IMG/VR virus record: IMGVR_UViG_2548876858_000013
From: a virus
Lineage: Duplodnaviria > Heunggongvirae > Uroviricota > Caudoviricetes
DNA length: 32,484 nt
Direction: 5' to 3' (one strand)
Position 1 is the stretch's first letter. Each line of letters opens with the position of its first letter. The translations under genes were made by a program, and so were the position numbers. The notes below the pieces were generated by a model. That model worked only from the letters and a program-made list of their open reading frames with translations, did not search any database and was not told where the DNA came from. Below, piece by piece: positions 3,588-27,372 of this stretch.

Positions 3588-3859
3588 GTATTCGTATTGA
3601 AATTGGCGAACGTTATGTCGTTACCAGTGACAGCTTTCAGTTTATTCTCCACGAGAAAAAGAGAGCTGAAAGCGGTAAAAACGCCGGTCAGGAATGGCTG
3701 GCGGTGGTTGGTTATTACCCGAAATTAAGCCAGCTCGTTTCCGGCCTGATGCATCACGATATTCTGACCGGAAGCGCAAAGTCTTTTGCTGATTTAAACG
3801 CGCAGGTTGAGCAACTCAGCAAGCGTTGTTCAGAGGCTTTTGGCTCATATGGCCGTTAA
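3584..3859 (+). CDS. Hypothetical early protein preceding gene A
   Basis: 91-aa ORF, start overlaps the upstream stop (ATGA), GGAG upstream. Confidence 0.55.
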   Translation: MSIRIEIGERYVVTSDSFQFILHEKKRAESGKNAGQEWLAVVGYYPKLSQLVSGLMHHDILTGSAKSFADLNAQVEQLSKRCSEAFGSYGR

Positions 3860-6125
3860 AGCCTCCGGGCGTTTTGTCCCTCCGTCAGCATTTGCCGCAG
3901 GCACCGGTAAGGCGTTTACCGGTGCTTATGCATGGAACGCGCCACGCGAGGCTGTCGGGCGCGAAAGACCCCTTACACGTGACGAGATGCGTCAGGTGCA
4001 AGGTGTTTTATCCACGATTAACCGCCTGCCTTACTTTTTGCGCTCGCTGTTTACTTCACGCTATGATTACATCCGGCGCAATAAAAGCCCGGTGCACGGG
4101 TTTTATTTCCTCACAGCCACTTTTCAGCGTCGTTTATGGCCGCGCATTGAGCGCGTGAATCAGCGCCATGAAATGAACACCGACGCGTCGTTACTGTTTC
4201 TGGCAGAGCGTGACCACTATGCGCGCCTGCCGGGAATGAATGACAAGGAGCTGAAAAAATTTGCCGCCCGTATCTCATCGCAGCTTTTCATGATGTATGA
4301 GGAACTCTGCGATGCCTGGGTGGATGCCCATGGCGAAAAAGAATCGCTGTTTACGGATGAGGCGCAGGCTCACCTGTATGGTCATGTTGCTGGCGCTGCA
4401 CGTGTTTTCAATATTTCCCCGCTCTACTGGAAAAAATACCGTAAAGGACAGATGACCACGAGGCAGGCATATTCTGCCATTGCCCGCCTGTTTAACGATG
4501 AGTGGTGGACTCATCAGCTTAAAGGCCAGCGTATGCGCTGGCATGAGGCGTTACTGATTGCTGTCGGGGAGGTCAATAAAGACCGTTCTCCTTATGCCAG
4601 TAAACATGCCATTCGTGATGTGCGTGCACGCCGCCAGGCAAATCTGGAATTTCTTAAATCGTGTGACCTTGAAAACAGGGAAACCGGCGAGCGCATCGAC
4701 CTTATCAGTAAGGTGATGGGCAGTATTTCTAATCCTGAAATTCGCCGGATGGAGCTGATGAACACCATTGCCGGTATTGAGCGTTACGCCGCAGCAGAGG
4801 GTGATGTGGGGATGTTTATCACGCTGACCGCGCCGTCAAAGTATCACCCGACACGTCAGGTCGGAAAAGGCGAAAGTAAAACCGTCCAGCTAAATCACGG
4901 CTGGAACGATGAGGCATTTAATCCAAAGGATGCGCAGCGTTATCTCTGCCATATCTGGAGCCTGATGCGCACGGCATTCAAGGATAATGATTTACAGGTC
5001 TACGGTTTGCGTGTCGTCGAGCCACACCACGACGGAACGCCGCACTGGCATATGATGCTTTTTTGTAATCCGCGCCAGCGTAACCAGATTATCGAAATCA
5101 TGCGTCGCTATGCGCTCAAAGAGGATGGCGACGAAAGAGGAGCCGCGCGAAACCGTTTTCAGGCAAAACACCTTAATCGGGGCGGTGCTGCGGGGTATAT
5201 CGCGAAATACATCTCAAAAAACATCGACGGCTATGCACTGGATGGTCAGCTCGATAACGATACCGGCAGGCCGCTGAAAGATACTGCTGCGGCTGTTACC
5301 GCATGGGCGTCAACGTGGCGCATTCCGCAATTTAAAACGGTTGGTCTGCCGACAATGGGGGCTTACCGTGAACTACGCAAATTGCCTCGCGGTGTCAGCA
5401 TTGCTGATGAGTTTGACGAGCGCGTCGAGGCTGCACGCGCCGCTGCAGACAGTGGTGATTTTGCGTTGTATATCAGCGCGCAGGGCGGGGCAAATGTCCC
5501 GCGCGATTGTCAGACTGTCAGGGTCGCCCGTAGCCCGTCGGATGACGTTAACGAGTACGAGGAAGAAGTCGAGAGAGTGGTCGGCATTTACGCGCCGCAT
5601 CTCGGCGCGCGTCATATTCATATCACCAGAACGACGGACTGGCGCATTGTGCCGAAAGTTCCGGTCGTTGAGCCTTTGACTTTAAAAAGCGGCATCGCCG
5701 CGCCTCGGAGTCCTGTCAATAACTGTGGAAAGCTCACCGGTGGTGATACTTCGTTACCGGCTCCCACACCTTCTGAGCACGCCGCAGCAGTGCTTAATCT
5801 GGTTGATGACGGTGTTATTGAATGGAATGAACCGGAGGTCGTGAGGGCGCTCAGGGGCGCATTAAAACACGACCTGCGAACGCCAAACCGTCAGCAAAGA
5901 AACGGAAGCCCGTTAAAACCACATGAAATTGCACCATCGGCCAGACTGACCCGGTCGGAAAGAATGCAAATTACCCGTATCCGCGTTGACCTTGCTCAGA
6001 ACGGTATCAGGCCGCAGCGATGGGAGCTTGAGGCGCTGGCGCGTGGCGCGACCGTAAATTATTACGGGAAATCTTTCAATTATCAGGTCGCTGATGAGTG
6101 GCCTGGATTTTTGTTACCCATTTGA
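3849..6125 (+). CDS. A: Rolling-circle replication initiation endonuclease (P2 gpA-like)
   Basis: Long ORF 3807..6125; start may be the ATG at 3849 (MAVKASG...) or 3807. Contains an HUH-like motif (PHWHMMLF, about 5038-5060) and a paired-tyrosine motif (GYIAKYISK, about 5195-5220) characteristic of phiX174/P2-type Rep proteins; P2 gene A position. Confidence 0.85.
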   Translation: MAVKASGRFVPPSAFAAGTGKAFTGAYAWNAPREAVGRERPLTRDEMRQVQGVLSTINRLPYFLRSLFTSRYDYIRRNKSPVHGFYFLTATFQRRLWPRIERVNQRHEMNTDASLLFLAERDHYARLPGMNDKELKKFAARISSQLFMMYEELCDAWVDAHGEKESLFTDEAQAHLYGHVAGAARVFNISPLYWKKYRKGQMTTRQAYSAIARLFNDEWWTHQLKGQRMRWHEALLIAVGEVNKDRSPYASKHAIRDVRARRQANLEFLKSCDLENRETGERIDLISKVMGSISNPEIRRMELMNTIAGIERYAAAEGDVGMFITLTAPSKYHPTRQVGKGESKTVQLNHGWNDEAFNPKDAQRYLCHIWSLMRTAFKDNDLQVYGLRVVEPHHDGTPHWHMMLFCNPRQRNQIIEIMRRYALKEDGDERGAARNRFQAKHLNRGGAAGYIAKYISKNIDGYALDGQLDNDTGRPLKDTAAAVTAWASTWRIPQFKTVGLPTMGAYRELRKLPRGVSIADEFDERVEAARAAADSGDFALYISAQGGANVPRDCQTVRVARSPSDDVNEYEEEVERVVGIYAPHLGARHIHITRTTDWRIVPKVPVVEPLTLKSGIAAPRSPVNNCGKLTGGDTSLPAPTPSEHAAAVLNLVDDGVIEWNEPEVVRALRGALKHDLRTPNRQQRNGSPLKPHEIAPSARLTRSERMQITRIRVDLAQNGIRPQRWELEALARGATVNYYGKSFNYQVADEWPGFLLPI

Positions 6126-6385
6126 GTAAAAATGCAGCGTGATTTTATATGCCTTTGAATGGATTATGCGAAGCGCCTCTAAGGCAGATGAGGAGCAATA
6201 GCATGCTGAAGTAGAAGGCTAAATTGTATTGAATCGCTAGCATGTAATTTAAGGCAGCTATTTGATTCGAGTCATAAAAGAGCATCTATTTCGGCTAATA
6301 AAACCATTGCGAGTGACCTTTTGTCGAAGCATAATTCATCTCGAGCGAAGTCTTGCTAGTCTTTCATCGGAATGATGACAGGCGC

Positions 6386-6415
6386 AAAAAAACCACCCTG
6401 GCAGGTGGTTTTTTT
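6386..6415. terminator. Bidirectional intrinsic terminator-like hairpin
   Basis: AAAAAAACCACC / loop CTGGCA / GGTGGTTTTTTT: an A-tract and T-tract flanking a GC stem; 13 nt downstream of the minus-strand small ORF stop and about 260 nt downstream of gene A. Confidence 0.6.
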
Positions 6416-6427
6416 GTTTGAAGCATA

Positions 6428-6541
6428 CTAAAGAATAATACTTACATGGATATTACTGACGTTTACTGACAAACCACTTGGACTACCATATGGATAGCCA
6501 AAGAGGGCCAGAACGAGAATGCAGTAATAGCACTTCTTCAT
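6428..6541 (-). CDS. Small hydrophobic protein (37 aa), candidate small membrane peptide
   Basis: Minus-strand ORF MKKCYYCILVLALFGYPYGSPSGLSVNVSNIHVSIIL, translated by hand. Near-consensus RBS GGAGGAGAT immediately upstream of the ATG and a hairpin terminator just downstream. Below the 60-aa cut-off of the ORF track. Confidence 0.4.
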   Translation of the reverse strand: MKKCYYCILVLALFGYPYGSPSGLSVNVSNIHVSIIL

Positions 6542-7112
6542 ATCTCCTCCTGTAAGCAGAGGGCAATTTCCGCCGATATATGCGCTTCTGAGGCGGAGTT
6601 ACTATTTAGCGAAGTCTTGCCCTGAAATAATGCTCTGTTTAAACGCAAAGTGATCTGGCATATCACCGAACAGAGAGCCTGAACAACACAACATATAGTA
6701 TGTCGTTGTTTCTGGTTGCATTTTATGTTGTGTAATACTGGTTTTGCATCAAGGATGTTTGAGCTTTTTTTGATATAGCTCAAAGTAAAAAGCAGGGACT
6801 ACGGATGATAAGGTATTGAAAGCAATGTAAATTTTTTAAAGTTATTGGTGGCTAAAAAATGCACGGTTTCAATATGGCGGACTTAAATAAGCAATTAAAA
6901 AAGTCATAAATATCACTAAAATCATGGTGTTACGTTTTTTTGTGGGAGCTGCGGTGACGCTTAAGTTGATTTGTCATTAAATAAGCCGTGCATGCAACAA
7001 GTGAATGTTTTTGCATGCGTCGGGGATGCCCGTTCCAGCTGCTCGCGGTCAGAGCTGGTGCGGATCCATAGTATCTATGCAACTGCATTAAAACCGCCAC
7101 ATGAAGCGGGCG

Positions 7113-7131
7113 GGCGAGGCGGGGAAAGCAC
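7113..7131. other. cos site (P2-type 19-nt cohesive end GGCGAGGCGGGGAAAGCAC)
   Basis: Exact 19-mer that I recall as the P2 cohesive end and start of the P2 genome, followed here by TGCGCGCT as I recall for P2; sits in a GC-rich patch within otherwise AT-rich DNA between A and Q. Confidence 0.65.
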
Positions 7132-7355
7132 TGCGCGCTCCATTAACGACCATTACATAATACTATTAGCCTATGAATCGAGTCATGAGATGTTATCTTT
7201 ACGATTCAGGCGAGTGCTTTCGTTACGATGAGTTAGTTTAAGCACACTATCTGCACAAAAAATAATCTGTTGAAGCGATTCATCATTCCTAACGCTCTAG
7301 AGTCTTAAATAAAAATATGTAAAATGCGTAAAATTTTCTGAATTATGGATCAGCT

Positions 7356-8438
7356 ATGCTTGGAACTTCATCACAAAGAGCTATTTCAGTACAACATGTT
7401 GATTTAAATGTAAAGTGTTGGGTCGTTAGACCTGGGATTAAGTATAGATATTTTGCAGACTTCCTTGAACGCAATATGGTTGCTACTGCTCACTTGGATA
7501 GGTTAAGTCCAGATCAAATTGACTTTAATGATGAAATTAACCATGAAAATATTAATCAAAAGGTTGATGGGTTAGATACTATTGGTTCAAGAAATATTCA
7601 TACCCAAATTGAAAATTTCCTCATAGATATGCAGGTCGGTGATGTTGTTTTCACTTTGTCAGGTGATATGGTTGTTCCTGGAGTTATTGCATCTTCCGCG
7701 TATTTTGAGCGTGAATGTTTAGGTAATAATGAAGGGTTTCATGTAAGACGTAGAGTCACATGGGGAGAGCCAGTTCGCAGACGAGAGATTCCATTAGCTC
7801 TTCAGAAATCGTTTACTGCATACCAGACCGTATTCTCTTTGGGCGGGAAGTCAGAAGAAGTACTGCATTGGTTAATGTCATTCTTTATAACGGATAATAT
7901 TTTCTGTACTAGCTTAAGAGTCGAGCAAGCAGAAGCCATTCGGCATCATACTCTTAAGCAGCTGGCTGAGCTGGTCGATAGAGTGCAGGTACTTGCGCTA
8001 TTAATTGGCGAAGAGTTTGATGGCGAGTATACAAACGAAGTTGTTCAGTTTGAGATGGAAAGACTTTCTAATAATGGAGAGTTATCCTTGACTGCTCAAC
8101 AAATGTTGATGTCTCCGGGGGATGTTTGGCTACAATTTAAAACAAATAATAGAAAGGCCGGAATTGCGTTTATGTTAATTATGGGGGCCATTTTTAATCA
8201 TGATGTAGCCTTCGCTTCAACGGTTGATAATCGTATAAGTGAGGAACTTCGATCTCATATTGAAGGGAAAAAAGAGGTTGCAATGGATGGATTAAACTTT
8301 GATAGAGTTTCTCAAGTTCTAGAGTTGCGTTTAAAAAGACAAAATAGAGGCTTTGTTTCTGCTCGTCCAACGAACCGTGAGATCGGACAGGGGATCAATT
8401 TCCCTGAAGATGGTGATGCGAGGCATGCGAGTGACTAA
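7356..8438 (+). CDS. Hypothetical cargo protein, 360 aa, soluble; first gene of a two-gene operon
   Basis: Long ORF in AT-rich DNA; weak RBS (GGAT), so the true start could be downstream. No nucleotidyltransferase GS..DxD motif and no clear HEPN or PD-(D/E)xK motif seen by eye. Confidence 0.7.
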   Translation: MLGTSSQRAISVQHVDLNVKCWVVRPGIKYRYFADFLERNMVATAHLDRLSPDQIDFNDEINHENINQKVDGLDTIGSRNIHTQIENFLIDMQVGDVVFTLSGDMVVPGVIASSAYFERECLGNNEGFHVRRRVTWGEPVRRREIPLALQKSFTAYQTVFSLGGKSEEVLHWLMSFFITDNIFCTSLRVEQAEAIRHHTLKQLAELVDRVQVLALLIGEEFDGEYTNEVVQFEMERLSNNGELSLTAQQMLMSPGDVWLQFKTNNRKAGIAFMLIMGAIFNHDVAFASTVDNRISEELRSHIEGKKEVAMDGLNFDRVSQVLELRLKRQNRGFVSARPTNREIGQGINFPEDGDARHASD

Positions 8439-8440
8439 CT

Positions 8441-9130
8441 ATGAACTTTGAATTTGTAAAAGAACACTGGCTGATAATAGGCATGCTATTCATAGCATGT
8501 CTATTATTAATTTTAAAATTCAAAGATATTTACAGAACACACGATCAGTTTAATAACGTCGTGATGTCATTGTGCGCTGTTTTGACACTTGTGTGGGGAG
8601 GATATACTTTTGATGTTTTGCACCAAAGGGATAAGGCAGAAGCTGATCTTATAGAGTTAAGAAATAGAATTAGAAATACAGAATCGACATTTTTTAATGT
8701 TGACGTTAATGTTGTTAAAATCGATGATGTGTTTTATATAAAGCCTATTGTGACTATTAGGAATAACAGTAATGAGCGAATTTATGTGAAGCTTAATAAC
8801 AAGTCCCTTGCTGTTAGTCGTGTTTTATCGGCCGGTGCAAAGCAAGTCGCTACGGAAGTTTTTTATCCAAATTATTATGAGGAGTTGGCTGTTCTTAATG
8901 AAGAAAGTAGCTCGCAAGGAAAAGCTAAAAATATACCTTTATATGACATATCCGTTCCTATCTCTGCTGAAAGACGCTTGAACTATCTTGTTTCGACAAA
9001 AGAAAAAGGAATGTATTATGTAACATTTAGTGCTGAGGCAATGAACGAAGATGGCTCGCCTGTTTCTAAATACATAAATGGGAAAAAATCTATATGGTTT
9101 TCTTCTTCATATATTGAAGTTAAAGATTGA
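8441..9130 (+). CDS. Hypothetical cargo membrane protein, 229 aa, two N-terminal TM helices plus a beta-rich-looking soluble domain
   Basis: ATG 2 nt after the upstream stop (TAACTATG). Hydrophobic segments WLIIGMLFIACLLLIL and VVMSLCAVLTLVWGGYTF; the remainder is rich in alternating hydrophobic/polar stretches. AT-rich. Confidence 0.7.
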   Translation: MNFEFVKEHWLIIGMLFIACLLLILKFKDIYRTHDQFNNVVMSLCAVLTLVWGGYTFDVLHQRDKAEADLIELRNRIRNTESTFFNVDVNVVKIDDVFYIKPIVTIRNNSNERIYVKLNNKSLAVSRVLSAGAKQVATEVFYPNYYEELAVLNEESSSQGKAKNIPLYDISVPISAERRLNYLVSTKEKGMYYVTFSAEAMNEDGSPVSKYINGKKSIWFSSSYIEVKD

Positions 9131-9225
9131 ATTTCTATTAAACCATATAGTAATTGAAGGTGTTGGGGGTTAATCTTGCCTGGATTGCATAGAATCACGC
9201 CGCCTGGAGACGGCGCTAAGGGTAC

Positions 9226-18297: not shown

Positions 18298-19083
18298 TTA
18301 TGAGTGGTTTTTATTTGATGCTTTGTATTCTAAAACCTTCTTATTGGCGTAAAGGAATTTTGTATATGACAGGAATATAAGCAGACCTGAAATGAAATAG
18401 GTTAGGGATATTATTAATAATGTTTTTCTGTGGCTGTTATTATCTTTAATCTCCTGACTTAACCATTCGGAGTCCTCCTTGTTTAGCTGTAAGAGCTTAT
18501 TGCAGGCGATCTCGGGAAGTGTGTCTTTTATAAATACGTTTTGCAGACTCTTGCAATCGGCAAGGCTATAAGTTTTATTAAATTCAACCGTTTTATTTTT
18601 GAAGGATAAAAGAACTTTGTCACTATAAACATAGTACATCATATTTTTATATGGTATACCTATGGCATCCCTTACTATAGCGGATTGTTCATTGTGTATA
18701 TAACATGCGAAGAGAATATAAATAATACTGGCCAGAATTACAATTATTGTTTTAATTATGTGTGGTGGTTTTGTTATGTCACCCCAGATGCGAGTAAGGA
18801 AAAAATACGATGTTTTTAGTTTTCCATCAATCAGTCCCTGCTGTATCATTCTCACATTTTCAATGCCTGATACATTGATTCCGTTAATTATTTTAAATAG
18901 TTGAATGTCGCGCCACTCGCGGTCAAGTCTTTTTAATTTTTTGTCTGAATATCCAAAATTGAAATAATGTGCAATAAGCCTCATAAGGTTACTTTTACCA
19001 AAGCTAAAAAATGCTAATACTGCAAAGCTACAAAGGAAAAAAACGATTAGCCCCCACACATTAGTCACATTATAGCTGACCAT
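18298..19083 (-). CDS. Hypothetical cargo membrane protein, 261 aa, three predicted TM helices
   Basis: Strong RBS (AAGGAG six nt upstream of the ATG at 19081-19083); very AT-rich; hydrophobic segments near the N-terminus (VWGLIVFFLCSFAVLAFFSF), middle (IIKTIIVILASIIYILFACYI) and C-terminus (LLIISLTYFISGLLIFLSY). Sits at the S-V variable locus. Confidence 0.75.
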   Translation of the reverse strand: MVSYNVTNVWGLIVFFLCSFAVLAFFSFGKSNLMRLIAHYFNFGYSDKKLKRLDREWRDIQLFKIINGINVSGIENVRMIQQGLIDGKLKTSYFFLTRIWGDITKPPHIIKTIIVILASIIYILFACYIHNEQSAIVRDAIGIPYKNMMYYVYSDKVLLSFKNKTVEFNKTYSLADCKSLQNVFIKDTLPEIACNKLLQLNKEDSEWLSQEIKDNNSHRKTLLIISLTYFISGLLIFLSYTKFLYANKKVLEYKASNKNHS

Positions 19084-19166
19084 TACGCTCTCCTTGAATG
19101 TTGTCTGGTAGTTCTACAAATGAATCCAGATAGCATAACTTTTATATATTGTGCAATCTCACATGC
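19084..19166. promoter_or_regulatory. Probable late promoter region upstream of V, shared with the divergent cargo gene
   Basis: Position-based inference; 83-bp AT-rich divergent intergenic region. Confidence 0.3.
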
Positions 19167-19802
19167 ATGAACACTCTCGCAAATATTCAGGAACTCGCGC
19201 GCGCACTGCGCAACATGATTCGCACCGGCATTATCGTCGAAACCGACCTTAACGCCGGTCGCTGCCGCGTGCAGACCGGCGGCATGTGCACCGACTGGCT
19301 TCAGTGGCTGACCCATCGCGCCGGGCGTTCGCGCACATGGTGGGCACCTTCCGTGGGGGAACAGGTGCTGATTCTGGCCGTGGGTGGTGAACTCGACACG
19401 GCGTTCGTTCTGCCGGGGATTTATTCCGGCGATAACCCCGCGCCGTCTGCGTCGGCGGATGCCCTGCATATCCGTTTCCCTGACGGGGCGGTGATTGAGT
19501 ATGAACCTGAAACCAGCGCGCTCACGGTAAGCGGAGTTAAAACGGCCAGCGTGACGGCTTCTGATTCTGTTACTGCCACGGTGCCGGTGGTCATGGTGAA
19601 AGCATCAACCCGCATCACCCTGGACACACCGGAGGTGGTCTGCACCAACAGGCTGATTACCGGCACGCTGGAAGTGCAGAAGGGCGGGACGATGCGCGGC
19701 AACATTGAACACACCGGCGGTGAGCTCTCATCAAACGGTAAGGTACTGCATACCCATAAACACCCCGGCGACAGCGGCGGCACAACCGGGGGACCTCTAT
19801 GA
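19167..19802 (+). CDS. V: Baseplate assembly/spike protein (P2 gpV-like)
   Basis: ATG at 19167 gives 211 aa (recalled P2 gpV length); the ORF track start at 19149 is a TTG. Confidence 0.85.
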   Translation: MNTLANIQELARALRNMIRTGIIVETDLNAGRCRVQTGGMCTDWLQWLTHRAGRSRTWWAPSVGEQVLILAVGGELDTAFVLPGIYSGDNPAPSASADALHIRFPDGAVIEYEPETSALTVSGVKTASVTASDSVTATVPVVMVKASTRITLDTPEVVCTNRLITGTLEVQKGGTMRGNIEHTGGELSSNGKVLHTHKHPGDSGGTTGGPL

Positions 19803-21592: not shown

Positions 21593-23722
21593 ATGAGCAC
21601 AAAATTCAGAACCGTTATCACCACTGCCGGTGCAGCAAAGCTGGCAGCGGCAACCGCGCCGGGAGGGCGGAAGGTCAACATTACCACGATGGCCGTCGGG
21701 GATGGCGGTGGTAAATTGCCTGTCCCGGATGCCGGACAGACCGGGCTTATCCATGAAGTCTGGCGACATACGCTGAACAAAATCAGCCAGGACAAACGAA
21801 ACAGTAATTATATTATCGCAGAGCTGGTTATTCCGCCGGAGGTGGGTGGTTTCTGGATGCGTGAGCTTGGCCTGTACGATGATGCGGGAACGTTAATTGC
21901 CGTGGCGAACATGGCCGAAAGTTATAAACCTGCCCTTGCCGAAGGCTCAGGGCGTTCGCAGACCTGCCGCATGGTCATCATCGTCAGCAGTGTGGCCTCA
22001 GTGGTGCTGACCATTGACACCACAACGGTGATGGCGACGCAGGATTACGTTGATGACAAAATTGCAGAGCATGAACAGTCACGACGTCACCCGGACGCCT
22101 CGCTGACCGCAAAAGGTTTTACTCAGTTAAGCAATGCGACCAACAGCACGTCTGAAACACTGGCCGCAACGCCGAAAGCGGTAAAGGCCGCCTATGACCT
22201 GGCTAACGGGAAATATACTGCGCAGGATGCCACCACAGCGCGAAAAGGTCTTGTCCAGCTCAGTAGTGCCACCAACAGCACGTCTGAAACGCTCGCCGCA
22301 ACACCAAAAGCGGTAAAGGCCGCGTATGACCTTGCTAACGGGAAATACACTGCACAGGACGCCACCACAGCGCGAAAAGGTCTTGTCCAGCTCAGTAGCG
22401 TCACCAACAGCGATTCTGAAATGCTTGCGGCAACGCCAAAGGCGGTTAAGACAGCGTATGACCTTGCTAATGGGAAATACACTGCACAGGATGCCACCAC
22501 GGCGCGGAAAGGTCTTGTTCAGCTCAGTAGCGCCACCAACAGCGATTCTGAAACGCTGGCTGCAACGCCAAAGGCGGTTAAGACAGCGTATGACCTTGCT
22601 AACGGGAAATACACTGCACAGGACGCCACCACAGCGAGAAAAGGCCTTGTCCAGCTCAGTAGCGCCACCAACAGCGATTCTGATACGCTGGCCGCAACAC
22701 CAAAAGCGGTGAGGTCTGCCTATGACAATGCTGAGAAACGTCTTCAGAAAGATCAGAACGGCGCGGATATTCCTGATAAAAGATTATTCCTGCGCAATAT
22801 TGGAGCAACAAATTCAACAACCATGTCTTTTAGTGGTGGTACAGGATGGTTCAGGCTGGCAACTGTAACCATGCCACAGGCCAGTTCCGTGGTTTACATA
22901 AGTCTGATTGGTGGTGCCGGGTATAATGTTAACTCCCCTATGCAGGCTGGTATATCTGAACTTGTTCTTCGTGCGGGAAATGGAAATCCAAAAGGTCTTA
23001 CTGGTGCGTTATGGCGACGGACCTCGGTTGGATTTACTAATTTTGCATGGGTGAATACATCCGGTGATACCTATGATGTTTATGTTGAAATAGGTAATTA
23101 CGCCACAGGTGTTAATATTCAGTGGGATTATACCAGTAACGCCAGCGTAACGATTCATACATCACCAACTTATACAGCGAATAAACCAACAGGCCTGACA
23201 GATGGAACTGTATATGTAATTTACAGTTCGCACATTAAACCGACTGCTGCTGATGTTGGGGCGTTATCATTATCTGGAGGTCAATTGAATGGTGCACTGG
23301 GCATCGGTACATCCAGTGCTCTTGGCGGTAACTCGATTGTTTTGGGTGATAATGACACGGGCTTTAAACAAAATGGCGACGGTAATCTGGATGTTTATGC
23401 TAATAACGTCCATGTTATGCGCTTTGTCTCCGGTAGCATTCAAAGTAATAAAACCATAAATATTACGGGGCGTGTTAATCCCTCGGATTACGGTAACTTT
23501 GATTCCCGCTATGTCCGGGATATCCGGCTTGGTGGTGCTGCCACATACAAACCTGCGAACAATGGCATGACATGGACACATCAGGCACCATCCGGGTGTG
23601 TATATTCCGGCATTATTGTTCAGGATACCGGCTCAAACTCTGCCGATAACATTGGTGGCGTATATTACAGGCCGGTGCAGAAATACATTAACGGGACATG
23701 GTATAACGTGGTGCAGGTATAA
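21593..23722 (+). CDS. H: Tail fiber protein (P2 gpH-like) with internal tandem repeats
   Basis: 709 aa after the baseplate genes; conserved N-terminal region, a central block of 44-aa tandem repeats, and a more AT-rich C-terminal region. Confidence 0.9.
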   Translation: MSTKFRTVITTAGAAKLAAATAPGGRKVNITTMAVGDGGGKLPVPDAGQTGLIHEVWRHTLNKISQDKRNSNYIIAELVIPPEVGGFWMRELGLYDDAGTLIAVANMAESYKPALAEGSGRSQTCRMVIIVSSVASVVLTIDTTTVMATQDYVDDKIAEHEQSRRHPDASLTAKGFTQLSNATNSTSETLAATPKAVKAAYDLANGKYTAQDATTARKGLVQLSSATNSTSETLAATPKAVKAAYDLANGKYTAQDATTARKGLVQLSSVTNSDSEMLAATPKAVKTAYDLANGKYTAQDATTARKGLVQLSSATNSDSETLAATPKAVKTAYDLANGKYTAQDATTARKGLVQLSSATNSDSDTLAATPKAVRSAYDNAEKRLQKDQNGADIPDKRLFLRNIGATNSTTMSFSGGTGWFRLATVTMPQASSVVYISLIGGAGYNVNSPMQAGISELVLRAGNGNPKGLTGALWRRTSVGFTNFAWVNTSGDTYDVYVEIGNYATGVNIQWDYTSNASVTIHTSPTYTANKPTGLTDGTVYVIYSSHIKPTAADVGALSLSGGQLNGALGIGTSSALGGNSIVLGDNDTGFKQNGDGNLDVYANNVHVMRFVSGSIQSNKTINITGRVNPSDYGNFDSRYVRDIRLGGAATYKPANNGMTWTHQAPSGCVYSGIIVQDTGSNSADNIGGVYYRPVQKYINGTWYNVVQV
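22113..22722 (+). repeat. In-frame tandem repeat inside the tail fiber gene, about 4.6 copies of a 132-bp (44-aa) unit
   Basis: Repeated peptide KGLVQLSSATNS(T/D)SETLAATPKAVKAAYDLANGKYTAQDATTAR; copies begin near 22113, 22245, 22377, 22509 and 22641 with a few substitutions. Confidence 0.85.
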
Positions 23723-23725
23723 TTT

Positions 23726-24253
23726 ATGCAGCATTTAAAAAATATTACGGCGGGTAATCCAAAAACGGTTGAACAATATCAATTAACAAAGGACTTTGAT
23801 GTTGTCTGGTTTTTTTCAGAAGATGGTAAGAACTGGTACGAAGAACAAAAGTATTTTGCTGATGACACGATAAAAATAGCGTACGACAAAGATAATATCA
23901 TCCGCTATGTGGAAAAGGATGTGACAGCTATCAGACCAGATGGATTAAGTGTTGTTGAAGTGGCGGATATTACTGCTAACCGACGGGCGGACATTTCAGG
24001 GAACTGGATGTTTAAAGACGGCACAGTGATTAAACGAATTTATACGGCGGAGGAATTGCAGCAGCAGGCAGAAAATCGGAAAGCCAGACTTCTTACAGAT
24101 GCTGAATACGTGATTTTGCCGTTGGAGCGCGCGGTCAGGCTGAACATAGCAACAGAGGAGGAGCGCACACGGTTGGAGGCTTGGGAACGCTACAGCGTTC
24201 TGGTCAGTCGTGTGGATCCTGCGAATCCTGAATGGCCGGAAATGCCGCAATAA
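23726..24253 (+). CDS. G: Tail fiber assembly protein (P2 gpG-like)
   Basis: 175 aa, recalled P2 gpG length, directly after H. Confidence 0.85.
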
Positions 24254-24310
24254 GTTCTATGAGCTCTGGTGTGAGCTGACATATCTATGGCAAAGAGTAA
24301 AGCCTAATCT

Positions 24311-24342
24311 GACAGTCCGCTCTGTGCCATGAGCGGACTGTC
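24311..24342. terminator. Perfect 12-bp inverted repeat stem-loop downstream of G (possible terminator)
   Basis: GACAGTCCGCTC / 8-nt loop / GAGCGGACTGTC; no clear U-tract, so terminator efficiency is uncertain. Confidence 0.4.
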
Positions 24343-24537
24343 AATAAACAGATTTACGTGTAAATCTTGAAGCTATACATATTTACTTTCAATGATAAAT
24401 AAAAGAACCACCCCAAAATCACTGAAAGTATATTTTAACTAACCACCTGCAACTACTAACATTAATTTCACTCAACCTCAAAGAGTCGTAATTAAAATGA
24501 TATGTATAGCAATTTGCCTCGATACGAATCATATGAA

Positions 24538-25236
24538 TTATATTTTTCCATGCTTTTCACCGTCAAATCGAATCATGCTAGGATCAAGAAAATAAATCAA
24601 ATCAATTAACGCATGTTGTATTCTGATTAGCCTTTCTTTATAAGGCTCGATATTTTTTGTCATATTTATCACTTCATTGTTTAAATCTAAAAAAAATGGT
24701 TCATTGACAAAGCAATTTTCCTTTGTGAAACCGCCGTAACCTATGCAATCAAATCCAGCATCTGTTGATATCAACATCTTTTCCGCAATAGCTCTCTGCT
24801 CTCCTATGAAAAACATAAAATACTGACCAAAGGCGTCTGTTTGGATTAATGAGTTAATATTGTTCTGTAATCTAATAAACTCCCTCATTTTTTTATTTTT
24901 TTCTAGACTAAGGTATTGAATGTCTATGCGGGCAGCTTCTGTCCATGCAAAGAACTGGGAAAAAAGAAAAACCGTATTTTTGATAACATAATCTTGTTGG
25001 CGCTTACTCCCATTATGATAAAACTCTTCAATAAACCCTAATTCTAATATGTTATAAATGCGGCTTTGTAAGTCTGAAGCTGAGCGAATTAACGGTTCAA
25101 TATAGTACTGATGTTTTCTCCTTACATCCAGTGTTTCATTGAGCTTGTTTATTCTATTCTGATTATAGGTAGATATAGCAATAGAGATTATAGATATTGC
25201 ACCACCAATAAGGCTTGAAATTAATGCCACACTCAT
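24538..25236 (-). CDS. Hypothetical cargo protein, 232 aa, N-terminal TM helix plus soluble domain
   Basis: RBS AAGGA seven nt upstream of the ATG at 25234-25236; very AT-rich; N-terminal hydrophobic segment VALISSLIGGAISIISIAISTY; at the G-FI variable locus. Confidence 0.7.
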   Translation of the reverse strand: MSVALISSLIGGAISIISIAISTYNQNRINKLNETLDVRRKHQYYIEPLIRSASDLQSRIYNILELGFIEEFYHNGSKRQQDYVIKNTVFLFSQFFAWTEAARIDIQYLSLEKNKKMREFIRLQNNINSLIQTDAFGQYFMFFIGEQRAIAEKMLISTDAGFDCIGYGGFTKENCFVNEPFFLDLNNEVINMTKNIEPYKERLIRIQHALIDLIYFLDPSMIRFDGEKHGKI

Positions 25237-26058
25237 CTAAAAGTCCTTTGATTTTCTTGGTTAACAAAATGACATGGTTTTATTTAATGTCGCAGCAACT
25301 TAATAATACACCATGATATGATTATTATGGTGTGATTTTTCGCATCTGTAATCCATTACAAACAGATGCAAGGTATAACTTGTCTATTTTTAGTCAGAAA
25401 ATTCGTAAACATCCAAAGTAGCCTCATCAAACTCTTAAAATTCTATACATTTGAGTGTAAAGATTTTAAATTCAGCTGCATGGTATCGACTCATGTTTAT
25501 TATATCTTTTATTTGTAATTAAAGGTTGCATTATTTTCGATAGTAAATCATCGCAAGATTGAAATATGATTTCACTTGATGCAATGTTTCATGTGGCCCA
25601 GCGATTTGAGTTACACCCAGCTGTACGGGTAATATAAATCAAATTGATGAACTTTTGATACACTCCTCTCTCCTCATTACTTTATGTTTTTGCTCTCAAA
25701 AATATCTTGCTCTCTGAAAATTATTCTTTAAGTTCAAAGTCGAGGACTGCATGAGTGTTAGATACAAAGCTAATATGTTGAAATGTTTTTCATCTCCCCA
25801 TAACGGCATTATTATCTAAAATATTTACACAAATATAGGATTACCCCTTTAACGTAAACTAGGTATCAAGTTAACACCATTATATATATCATAAACATGA
25901 TATTTTGTATATTTTTATCATTTAGCCTTGATTGTACAGGGCGTACTCTCAACGAAGTAGGGAAAGTCTGTTTTTCGCTCAAAACTGGCTGTCAGATTTG
26001 ATAGCATTTGGGCTATGTAAATTGTCAGTTGGAGAATGAGGGAGTAAAAATCAGGACA

Positions 26059-26085
26059 GGCGGGCGAATTGCCCGCCTTTTCTTT
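26059..26085 (+). terminator. Intrinsic terminator-like hairpin upstream of FI
   Basis: GGCGGGC / loop GAATT / GCCCGCC followed directly by TTTTCTTT on the plus strand. Confidence 0.5.
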
Positions 26086-26181
26086 ATCTGTTGTTTCATC
26101 CACTGACCAGCCAGGTCAAATAGCGTCTCATGTACTACCCAACGGAAAATAGTTGCACCCATTAACCACGGAGTTAAACGG
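26086..26181 (+). promoter_or_regulatory. Probable late promoter region upstream of FI, inferred by position
   Basis: Region between the terminator and the FI start. One-mismatch candidate to the recalled TGT-N12-ACA late-promoter site (TGT at 26092-26094, CCA twelve nt later); not conclusive. Confidence 0.3.
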
Positions 26182-27372
26182 ATGAGTGACTATCATCACG
26201 GCGTGCAGGTGCTGGAGATTAACGACGGCACCCGCGTCATTTCCACTGTATCCACGGCCATTGTCGGCATGGTCTGCACGGCCAGCGATGCGGATGCGGA
26301 AATCTTCCCCCTCAATAAACCGGTGCTGATTACCAATGTGCAGAGCGCAATTGCAAAGGCCGGTAAAAAAGGCACGCTGGCGGCATCGTTGCAGGCTATC
26401 GCCGACCAGTCAAAACCGGTCACCGTTGTTGTGCGCGTGGAAGACGGCACCGGCGACGACGAAGAAACGAAACTCGCGCAGACCGTTTCCAATATCATCG
26501 GCACCACCGACGAAAACGGTCAGTACACCGGACTGAAAGCCCTGATGGGGGCGGAGTCGGTTACCGGCGTTAAACCACGCATTCTCGGCGTACCGGGGCT
26601 GGACACCAAAGAGGTTGCCGTCGCACTGGCATCGGTATGCCAGGAACTGAATGCATTCGGGTATATCAGCGCATGGGGCTGTAAAACCATTTCCGAGGCA
26701 AAAGCCTACCGTCAGAATTTCAGCCAGCGTGAGCTGATGGTCATCTGGCCGGATTTCCTCGCATGGGATACGGTTACCAGTACCACCGCCACCGCGTATG
26801 CCACCGCCCGTGCGCTGGGTCTGCGCGCTAAAATCGACCAGGAGCAGGGCTGGCATAAAACGCTGTCCAACGTCGGGGTGAACGGTGTTACCGGCATCAG
26901 TGCATCCGTCTTCTGGGATTTGCAGAAGCCCGGCACTGATGCTGACCTGCTTAACGAGTCAGGCGTCACTACGCTGATTCGCCGCGACGGTTTCCGCTTC
27001 TGGGGTAACCGTACCTGCTCTGATGATCCGCTGTTCCTCTTTGAAAGTTACACCCGCACCGCGCAGGTACTGGCCGACACGATGGCTGAGGCGCACATGT
27101 GGGCTATTGATAAGCCCATCACCGCAACGCTGATTCGCGACATCATTGACGGCATCAATGCCAAATTCCGTGAACTGAAAAACAACGGTTATATCGTGGA
27201 TGGCACATGCTGGTTCAGCGAAGAATCCAACGATGCGGAAACCCTCAAGGCCGGCAAACTGTATATCGACTACGACTATACACCGGTGCCTCCTCTTGAA
27301 AATCTGACCCTGCGCCAGCGTATTACTTCCAGATACCTGGCAAGTCTGGTCACTTCGGTTAACAGCAATTAA
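26182..27372 (+). CDS. FI: Tail sheath protein (P2 gpFI-like)
   Basis: 396 aa, recalled P2 FI length. Confidence 0.9.
   Translation: MSDYHHGVQVLEINDGTRVISTVSTAIVGMVCTASDADAEIFPLNKPVLITNVQSAIAKAGKKGTLAASLQAIADQSKPVTVVVRVEDGTGDDEETKLAQTVSNIIGTTDENGQYTGLKALMGAESVTGVKPRILGVPGLDTKEVAVALASVCQELNAFGYISAWGCKTISEAKAYRQNFSQRELMVIWPDFLAWDTVTSTTATAYATARALGLRAKIDQEQGWHKTLSNVGVNGVTGISASVFWDLQKPGTDADLLNESGVTTLIRRDGFRFWGNRTCSDDPLFLFESYTRTAQVLADTMAEAHMWAIDKPITATLIRDIIDGINAKFRELKNNGYIVDGTCWFSEESNDAETLKAGKLYIDYDYTPVPPLENLTLRQRITSRYLASLVTSVNSN

Follow-up and report, generated by a model that had tools for sequence, protein, structure and literature searches.

A stand-alone, remote sister of the RTasTM/Drt1b membrane proteins at the Z/fun position of a P2-like prophage: a candidate anti-phage gene

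The 32,484-nucleotide stretch of DNA analyzed here (IMG/VR record IMGVR_UViG_2548876858_000013; hereafter the window) is a complete P2-like prophage, in which an integrase gene (positions 1-996) and the replication gene A (3807-6125) are followed by the head, lysis and tail genes. Between its tail fiber assembly gene G and its tail sheath gene FI lies an AT-rich cargo cassette with a single substantial open reading frame (ORF), encoding a 232-residue protein of PHROG 5606 with one N-terminal transmembrane (TM) helix. We document here the gene and its anatomy, its topology signals, its homology to the RTasTM/Drt1b proteins of defense systems based on reverse transcriptase (RT), its solo status, its mobility and the purifying selection acting on it. 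The reading that we favor, although we consider it finely balanced between right and wrong, is that the protein would be a single-gene anti-phage effector that is expressed in the lysogen and acts at the membrane. The features of the locus are as follows (window coordinates).

23726..24253, plus strand: tail fiber assembly gene G, the left backbone flank (Pfam Caudo_TAP, 1.5e-33).
24306..24342, no strand: left arm of the imperfect inverted repeat bounding the Z region, 37 nt, 70% complementary to 25962-25998; annotated in GenBank AJ512683.
24351..25971, no strand: cargo cassette of 1,621 bp, GC 0.32; homology to P2 ends at 24350 and restarts at 25972.
24538..25236, minus strand: coding sequence (CDS) of 232 aa, 'lysogenic protein' (PHROG 5606), with an ATG start; the sole substantial ORF of the island.
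24565..25107, minus strand: codons 44-224, predicted cytoplasmic all-alpha domain with one beta-hairpin (family alignment and AlphaFold2 model).
25168..25230, minus strand: codons 3-23, single N-terminal TM helix rich in S/G/A (hydropathy; conserved in the family).
25237..25971, no strand: AT-rich non-coding stretch upstream of the gene, which travels with it and has no conserved ORF and no Rfam family.
25244..25248, minus strand: Shine-Dalgarno sequence AAGGA, 7 nt upstream of the ATG, in the same place as the ribosome-binding site (RBS) in AJ512683.
25440..25469, minus strand: predicted sigma-70 promoter, TTAAAA-18 nt-TAGAAT, about 200 nt upstream of the ATG (consensus scan), with the same -35/-10 pair in AJ512683.
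25962..25998, no strand: right arm of the imperfect inverted repeat (repeat search; 'right inverted repeat' in AJ512683).
26053..26083, plus strand: terminator-like element, a GC-rich hairpin with a T-run after it, in the backbone DNA ahead of FI (repeat search).
26182..27372, plus strand: tail sheath gene FI, the right backbone flank (Pfam Phage_sheath_1, 7.8e-33, 1C and Gp18_domIII_N).

Phage P2 has the identical gene order, G, fun(Z) on the minus strand and FI, and its gene G with the region downstream shares 77% DNA identity with the window up to position 24350. Where P2 has a fun(Z) segment of 2,069 bp, the window has the 1,621-bp cassette at 24351-25971 instead. These comparisons bear out the first-pass annotation, which had placed the gene at the P2 Z/fun position and had described it as an AT-rich minus-strand gene preceded by an RBS and encoding a single N-terminal TM helix, located between G and the sheath gene; its statement that fun(Z) of P2 excludes phage T5 also agrees with the annotation of the P2 record ('cloned gene blocks growth of T5'). 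The span it gave to the locus (24254-25236) needs correction at both ends, as 24254-24537 is 3' non-coding DNA and the AT-rich island runs on to 26181. The island between G and FI measures 1.9 kb; its GC content is 0.32 (24501-26000), whereas that of the late genes on either side is 0.52-0.59. It is 98% DNA-identical over its whole length to AJ512683, "Bacteriophage P2-EC58 proviral Z-region, ORF1", in which the ORF is annotated as a "putative lysogenic protein" together with -10 and -35 elements, an RBS and an inverted repeat on the left and on the right. The repeat search also revealed a perfect 13-bp hairpin at 24310-24343, in the region of the left repeat arm, where the G transcript and that of the 232-aa ORF probably both end. 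The Z/fun slot of P2 is described in the literature as a hotspot for defense and accessory genes (PMC13586616; bioRxiv 2024.10.15.618418). The locus is best explained as a 'moron', a self-contained cassette of cargo DNA that occupies that slot and brings its own RBS and predicted promoter.

The 232-aa ORF is a real gene, because it has hundreds of homologs and because 232 open codons would arise by chance at the base composition of the island with a probability of only ~1e-8. Its match to PHROG 5606, whose function is unknown, is full-length (1e-148 over residues 1-232 of 232). Given a predicted promoter and an RBS of its own and an orientation opposite to the late genes, the gene is expected to be expressed in the lysogen; the promoter, which is a prediction only, would make this expression independent of the late operons. 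The upstream DNA (700 bp tested, 25260-25960) accompanies the gene in all 413 of the Escherichia coli genomes that carry it. Between the two E. coli alleles this DNA is 81% identical, compared with 94.6% for the CDS, and it diverges faster than the synonymous sites of the CDS (dS 0.145). Its length in other family members is only 150-530 nt, compared with ~950 bp of non-coding DNA here (25237-26181). When the two E. coli variants were compared, no ORF in it proved to be conserved except for trivial overlaps of 33-38 aa near the right repeat, and an Rfam scan of the upstream non-coding DNA gave no family. The one match in that scan, to PrrB/RsmZ at 25969-26085 on the plus strand, was below threshold (20.2 bits, E 0.1; gathering score 44) and is probably due to chance; it overlaps the right repeat arm and the hairpin at 26053-26083. 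A non-coding RNA or a small upstream ORF was therefore set aside, on the basis of the sub-threshold Rfam score, the lack of a retained ORF, the fast divergence and the short upstream regions elsewhere, and we regard this DNA as promoter, leader and spacer.

The predicted TM helix is the only hydrophobic segment of the 232-aa protein (Kyte-Doolittle mean 2.35 over residues 3-21). In an alignment of 110 family members, exactly one N-terminal hydrophobic segment is present in 109, and lysine and arginine average 0.3 in the 15 residues before this segment compared with 2.5 in the 15 residues after it. Because the positive residues are enriched after the TM segment, the topology is expected to be N-out/C-in, which indicates that the product would be an inner-membrane protein with its conserved C-terminal domain in the cytoplasm. 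Fourteen polar residues are invariant in the alignment (D55, Q57, S58, R59, N62, Y83, T88, Q94, R103, E146, Q147, R148, Y167, and D218). The AlphaFold2 model of the protein has a mean predicted local distance difference test score (pLDDT) of 85.9 and a predicted template modeling score (pTM) of 0.79. In this model the TM helix begins a single 63-residue helix, which is followed by three helices, the beta-hairpin, a short helix and two C-terminal helices. Searches for known relatives of the protein or its fold were mostly negative: the window protein has no match in Pfam and NCBIfam, a sequence search of the Protein Data Bank (PDB) with the family profile returned noise only (E 0.38-0.64), a Foldseek comparison of the model gave no significant match to a PDB structure (best E 0.095), and BFVD gave no viral one.

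The only match of the window protein in PADLOC was to the RTasTM (DRT) model PDLC03799 (E 1.1e-6), and this single match, to the TM protein of the RT-nitrilase DRT systems, was the outcome of the scan against defense profiles that the first-pass annotation had proposed as a check. The same model is matched by all 110 family members, the best at 1e-17, and a second RTasTM model (PDLC03013) by 87 of them. Mestre et al. (2022, PMC9226505) describe RTasTM as a transmembrane protein whose gene follows those of the UG1 and UG5-large RT-nitrilases. It appears as drt1b in DRT type 1, where ~18% of drt1 genes have it as a neighbor; its function there is not known, although a role as a channel similar to Hailong (HalA) has been speculated (PMC13275509). 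It also corresponds to the "1TM" gene of "RT-nitrilase + 1TM", a system with experimental validation that comes from E. coli E101, where it lies in a P4 hotspot (Rousset et al., 2022, PMC9122126). We took the sequence of the E101 TM protein from Table S2A of the latter study (PMC9122126). In hhalign the family profile matched this protein alone with 96.2% probability (E 2e-9) and an alignment of 26 E101-type proteins with 96.7% probability (E 3e-10, 148 columns). Two motifs align between the families, Y83-x4-T88-x5-Q94-YF-x-W98-x4-R103 and E146-Q147-x-I-G-E152 ... C164-x2-Y167-x2-F170. The AlphaFold2 model of the E101-type protein (pLDDT 86.3, pTM 0.73) has the same order of elements as that of the window protein.

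True RT-coupled RTasTM proteins score 350-540 bits over positions 1-229 of the PADLOC models, whereas the solo family scores ~25-60 bits and the window protein 26 bits, over profile positions 84-213. The motif D55-L-Q-S-R59 is kept in the solo family but is not conserved in the RT-coupled family, whose taxonomic range is also far narrower. Since its scores lie far below those of true members and its coverage of the profile is partial, we place the window protein in a sister family and not within RTasTM itself. The alignments thus point to PHROG 5606 as a stand-alone sister of RTasTM/Drt1b, by a homology that is real but remote.

Unlike the RT-coupled RTasTM proteins, the family protein is always solo. 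We examined 80 loci, each from a different species, drawn from Proteobacteria, Acidobacteria, Cyanobacteria, Actinobacteria, Bacteroidota, Nitrospirota, and Firmicutes. No conserved partner gene was detected: no neighboring family within 4 kb was common to more than 5 of the 80 loci, and those that recurred represent local synteny. RVT_1 is absent from the recurrent Pfam families of the 147 immediate neighbors, and phmmer searches with two RT-nitrilase queries found no RT-nitrilase homolog in any ORF of the 80 loci (within 6 kb) or of the 32-kb window. The E101-type TM genes, by comparison, overlap the stop codon of a 957-968-aa RVT_1 gene by 4-8 nt. An exhaustive profile search places 1,911 representatives in the solo family (50% clustering, E <= 1e-3), 439 of them with E <= 1e-30, and its 257 species loci are spread over many phyla and are overwhelmingly chromosomal; close relatives of the E101-type protein number 29, as counted by a word-indexed search, which is less exhaustive than the profile search. 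The plasmid and phage collections yielded only the P2-EC58 fragment among phages and a few Streptomyces plasmids. Rare fusions also occur. In two proteins (P0135 and P0136) the TM and helical domain is followed by a trypsin-like protease of ~310 aa, which in P0136 keeps the His/Asp/Ser motifs NHVL, VDAAVAR and GDSGS and in P0135 lacks the His and Ser, and in a third (P0207) it is followed by a C-terminal LuxR/GerE helix-turn-helix (HTH) domain. As the protease and HTH domains are fused C-terminally, they fit a cytoplasmic location of the C-terminal domain.

The gene is intact and present in one copy in 413 of 5,426 complete E. coli genomes (7.6%, mostly sequence type 131, ST131). The allele of the P2 Z slot (>= 99% identity) is found in only 4-5 of these carriers; the other 408, again mostly ST131, have the 94.6%-identical allele. 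In ST131 the copy belongs to an early-region moron cluster that lies between the replication genes and antiterminator Q; the prophage that carries it has a contractile tail, and its early and head genes are lambda-like. The cassette itself is recognizable in this non-P2 setting, since window positions 24272-25995 align with 87% identity to NZ_CP183084.1 at ~838.9-840.7 kb (L002/L109), and the ST131 copy retains the inverted-repeat arms together with 79 bp and 24 bp of P2-backbone-like flank. Since these arms and flanks recur in a non-P2 prophage, the cassette has passed as one unit, with the repeats as its boundaries, from one type of phage to another. The dN/dS ratio of 0.28 between the two E. 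coli alleles indicates purifying selection.

More distant homologs also occur in P2-like elements and beside defense genes. A P2-like remnant in Providencia has a 58%-identical homolog in the Z slot, next to the tail fiber assembly gene, along with a DUF2971 gene and an AAA_15 gene, and in a Lonsdalea P2-like prophage a homolog of 43% identity, in the slot at the integrase end, overlaps the stop codon of the integrase gene and adjoins an AAA_15/SMC_N + DUF4435 pair, which has the PARIS architecture. Other family neighbors include SIR2-HerA, genes for JukB, ThsA, a type I restriction endonuclease and Mokosh, and toxin-antitoxin (TA) modules of the RelE/MqsA or PIN type. In the Acidobacteriaceae loci (L007, L008, L108 and related ones) the gene has a constant position, with hemB (ALAD) on one side and an acyl-CoA dehydrogenase gene on the other, and PIN, HepT/MNT and other TA modules vary around it, so that the locus looks like a chromosomal accessory hotspot around a stable copy.

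The candidacy of the gene for defense is supported because its slot matches that of fun(Z), because its family is homologous to RTasTM, and because it recurs in mobile and defense settings; its solo status, the purifying selection on it and its intactness in 413 E. coli genomes are further points in favor. As we picture it, the cassette would be expressed in the lysogen from its own promoter, and the TM helix would anchor a cytoplasmic helical bundle of ~200 residues, with its small beta-hairpin, at the inner membrane. The conserved polar surface or pocket of the bundle may sense a cue of infection, upon which the TM helices, being rich in small residues, might assemble and compromise the membrane. 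Infection would then abort, or competing phages would be excluded, and the prophage would gain.

Several points weigh against this reading, and they leave the proposal of the first-pass annotation, that the protein is a candidate for defense or exclusion, only partly sustained: the RTasTM homology, the recurrence in prophage cargo slots and the defense-gene neighbors speak for it, but the homology is remote and the RT partner is absent. The searchable literature contains no phenotype for any family member. ECOR58, the host of P2-EC58, was part of the library that Vassallo selected with T4, lambda and T7, and the gene was not among the systems recovered. DRT1 (PMC13275509) and a UG5 system (PMC13436386) defend without the TM protein, and the RT-coupled homolog's own role is unknown. 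The 14 invariant polar residues suggest ligand binding or catalysis in preference to a simple pore. Housekeeping genes dominate the 147 immediate neighbors across phyla (raw tally), the Acidobacteriaceae gene keeps its stable place by hemB, and only 6 loci of the family were found in 2.9 million IMG/VR contigs.

A competing explanation, which we consider improbable but a serious contender, is that the protein is a membrane-tethered cytoplasmic sensor or regulator with a cellular role unrelated to phages, such as envelope or stress signaling, and that the prophage carries it as a lysogenic-conversion gene that alters host physiology. The overwhelmingly chromosomal distribution of the family over many phyla (257 species loci, 1,911 representatives) would suit such a role, as would the mostly metabolic immediate neighbors, the Acidobacteriaceae synteny with hemB and acyl-CoA dehydrogenase, and the ligand site that the invariant polar residues suggest; the fusions to a LuxR/GerE HTH (P0207) and to trypsin-like proteases (P0135 and P0136) are of a pattern typical of signaling modules. 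However, a role remote from phages does not sit well with homology to a component of a validated defense system, with repeated capture by prophage cargo slots that are dominated by defense genes, or with defense and TA neighbors in several unrelated lineages. Even the acidobacterial locus gathers variable PIN and HepT/MNT modules and thus behaves as an accessory hotspot.

The slot and orientation shared with fun(Z), together with the inner-membrane anchor and the predicted lysogen-type expression signals, could also be read as pointing to a narrow superinfection exclusion protein, an analog but not a homolog of Fun(Z), T4 Imm or P22 SieA that blocks DNA entry or the use of a receptor at the inner membrane. 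We think this quite unlikely, as the positive-inside pattern places the conserved domain in the cytoplasm and leaves only 0-4 residues in the periplasm, members of the family come mostly from non-viral DNA and from phyla whose envelopes differ greatly, and no similarity to any superinfection exclusion (Sie) family was found in PHROGs, PADLOC or Pfam. The least probable explanation is that the protein is an orphan dependent on an RT encoded elsewhere and acting in trans, or a decaying remnant of an RT-nitrilase-TM operon. This explanation draws on the translational coupling of the protein's closest characterized relatives, without fail, to a 957-968 aa RVT_1 protein, on the Abi-P2 RT (orf544) reported in P2-EC58 (PMC9508834), and on the retron Ec48 that a further P2-like prophage of E. 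coli, in which the Z gene is the same, has between gene A and the portal gene Q (the A-Q slot), but it is disfavored by the lack of an RT-nitrilase homolog in the window, whose own A-Q slot has different cargo with no Pfam match, by the unrelated classes of the RTs in the other two prophages and the independent swapping of that slot, by the absence of an RT-nitrilase homolog within 6 kb in all 80 diverse loci (0/80), by purifying selection and intactness in 413 genomes, and by the far larger size of the solo family (1,911 clusters by exhaustive profile search against 29 proteins by word-indexed search).

If the single-gene anti-phage reading is extended, the solo family could be the ancestral, free-living form of a module that was later captured as Drt1b: a one-protein sensor and effector, in which the polar pocket would bind a nucleic acid or nucleotide cue derived from the infection and so gate the oligomerization of the TM helix into a channel. 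We put this forward as a speculation, and one that is more likely to be wrong than right by some way. If true, it would describe a new one-gene abortive-infection system with ~1,900 protein clusters across bacteria, and it would also explain how Drt1b acts.

The gene was deposited two decades ago and so is not new. In the library searched, we found no paper that reports the link to Drt1b/RTasTM, the broad RT-free sister clade, or the recurrence of the gene in P2 cargo slots. These matter because Drt1b/RTasTM is without a known function, a 2026 structural study of DRT1 having only speculated on it (PMC13275509), while a much larger sister family exists free of RTs, and temperate phages repeatedly take its gene into defense cargo slots. 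Should the solo protein protect, it would be a compact new single-gene system and a simple handle on the effector half of DRT1/UG5; should it not, the case would caution that a hotspot position and a match to a defense profile are insufficient evidence of defense.

Other cargo is present in the window. The second P2 cargo slot, the A-Q slot (the old/tin position, 6126-9225), has a GC content of 34-44% and holds a two-gene cassette preceded by ~1.2 kb without a long ORF (6126-7355). A third cassette (18298-19469, 33% GC, minus strand) lies among the tail and baseplate genes, at what we take to be the position of P2 orf30. The ORFs of these two cassettes are as follows.

7356-8438, plus strand: cargo ORF of 360 aa (PADLOC candidate PDC-S02, 2.4e-12; phrog_10226; no Pfam match).
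8441-9130, plus strand: cargo ORF of 229 aa (no match in Pfam, PADLOC or PHROGs).
18298-19083, minus strand: ORF of 261 aa (phrog_2407, function unknown, 2.6e-146; no Pfam or PADLOC match).
19083-19469, minus strand: ORF of 128 aa (no Pfam or PADLOC match).

In L107 (NZ_CP148583.1 1281813-1286497), a P2-like prophage of E. coli whose Z slot has the same gene, the A-Q slot instead holds retron Ec48, with its RT and effector membrane protein, and an AAA ATPase. Because prophages with the same Z gene hold different A-Q cargo, the two slots must swap independently. The tail fiber gene H of the window (21593-23722) contains five tandem repeats of ~44 aa at 22000-22700 (…DATTARKGLVQLSSATNS-SETLAATPKAVK-AYDLANGKYTAQ…).

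With regard to known systems, the locus of P2 Fun(Z) and that of the window gene have in common the G-FI slot, the opposite strand, the AT-rich cargo and the same backbone flanks. Fun(Z) blocks the growth of T5 and confers sensitivity to 5-fluorodeoxyuridine (FUdR), and the window protein is under half its size (232 compared with 528 aa). The first-pass annotation had considered kinship with fun(Z) undecidable by eye; the alignment shows no relationship to Fun(Z) (NP_046777, 528 aa), either by BLASTP (E 3.1) or by hhalign with the 110-member profile (probability 0.07%), which rules out a Fun(Z) homolog. As judged from these alignments, the window gene is a positional replacement of fun(Z) and not its homolog.

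ClyA-family toxins (Cry6Aa, ClyA, SmhA, and PaxB) recurred among the weak Foldseek matches, at template modeling scores of 0.2-0.24 and E 0.1-0.6, which are not significant. The hairpin of the window protein (LIST..GFDC), unlike that of the ClyA/HlyE family, is not hydrophobic, and the ClyA toxins are secreted and soluble whereas the window protein is predicted to be N-terminally anchored and cytoplasmic. We treat the modeled likeness to pore formers as a lead only.

The membrane effectors of abortive infection, namely SLATT, the two-TM protein of retron Ec48 and HalA of Hailong, are, like the window protein, small and membrane-anchored, and they are encoded in defense loci. The effector of retron Ec48 has two TM helices, and SLATT proteins have two to three (PMC9226505), whereas the window protein has a single one and matches none of the three in sequence or fold. 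For SLATT specifically, there was no Pfam match, and the RTasSLATT model was matched by one of the 110 family members (E 0.0067).

Closer in design is the E101-type RTasTM, which is 229 aa in length compared with 232, and likewise has a single N-terminal TM helix and an all-alpha domain of ~200 aa. Closest of all is ORF1 of the Z region of P2-EC58 (AJ512683, CAD54907), for which the record gives a name only, the label 'lysogenic protein' having since spread to homologs at NCBI; it is essentially the same gene as that of the window, with two amino acid differences.

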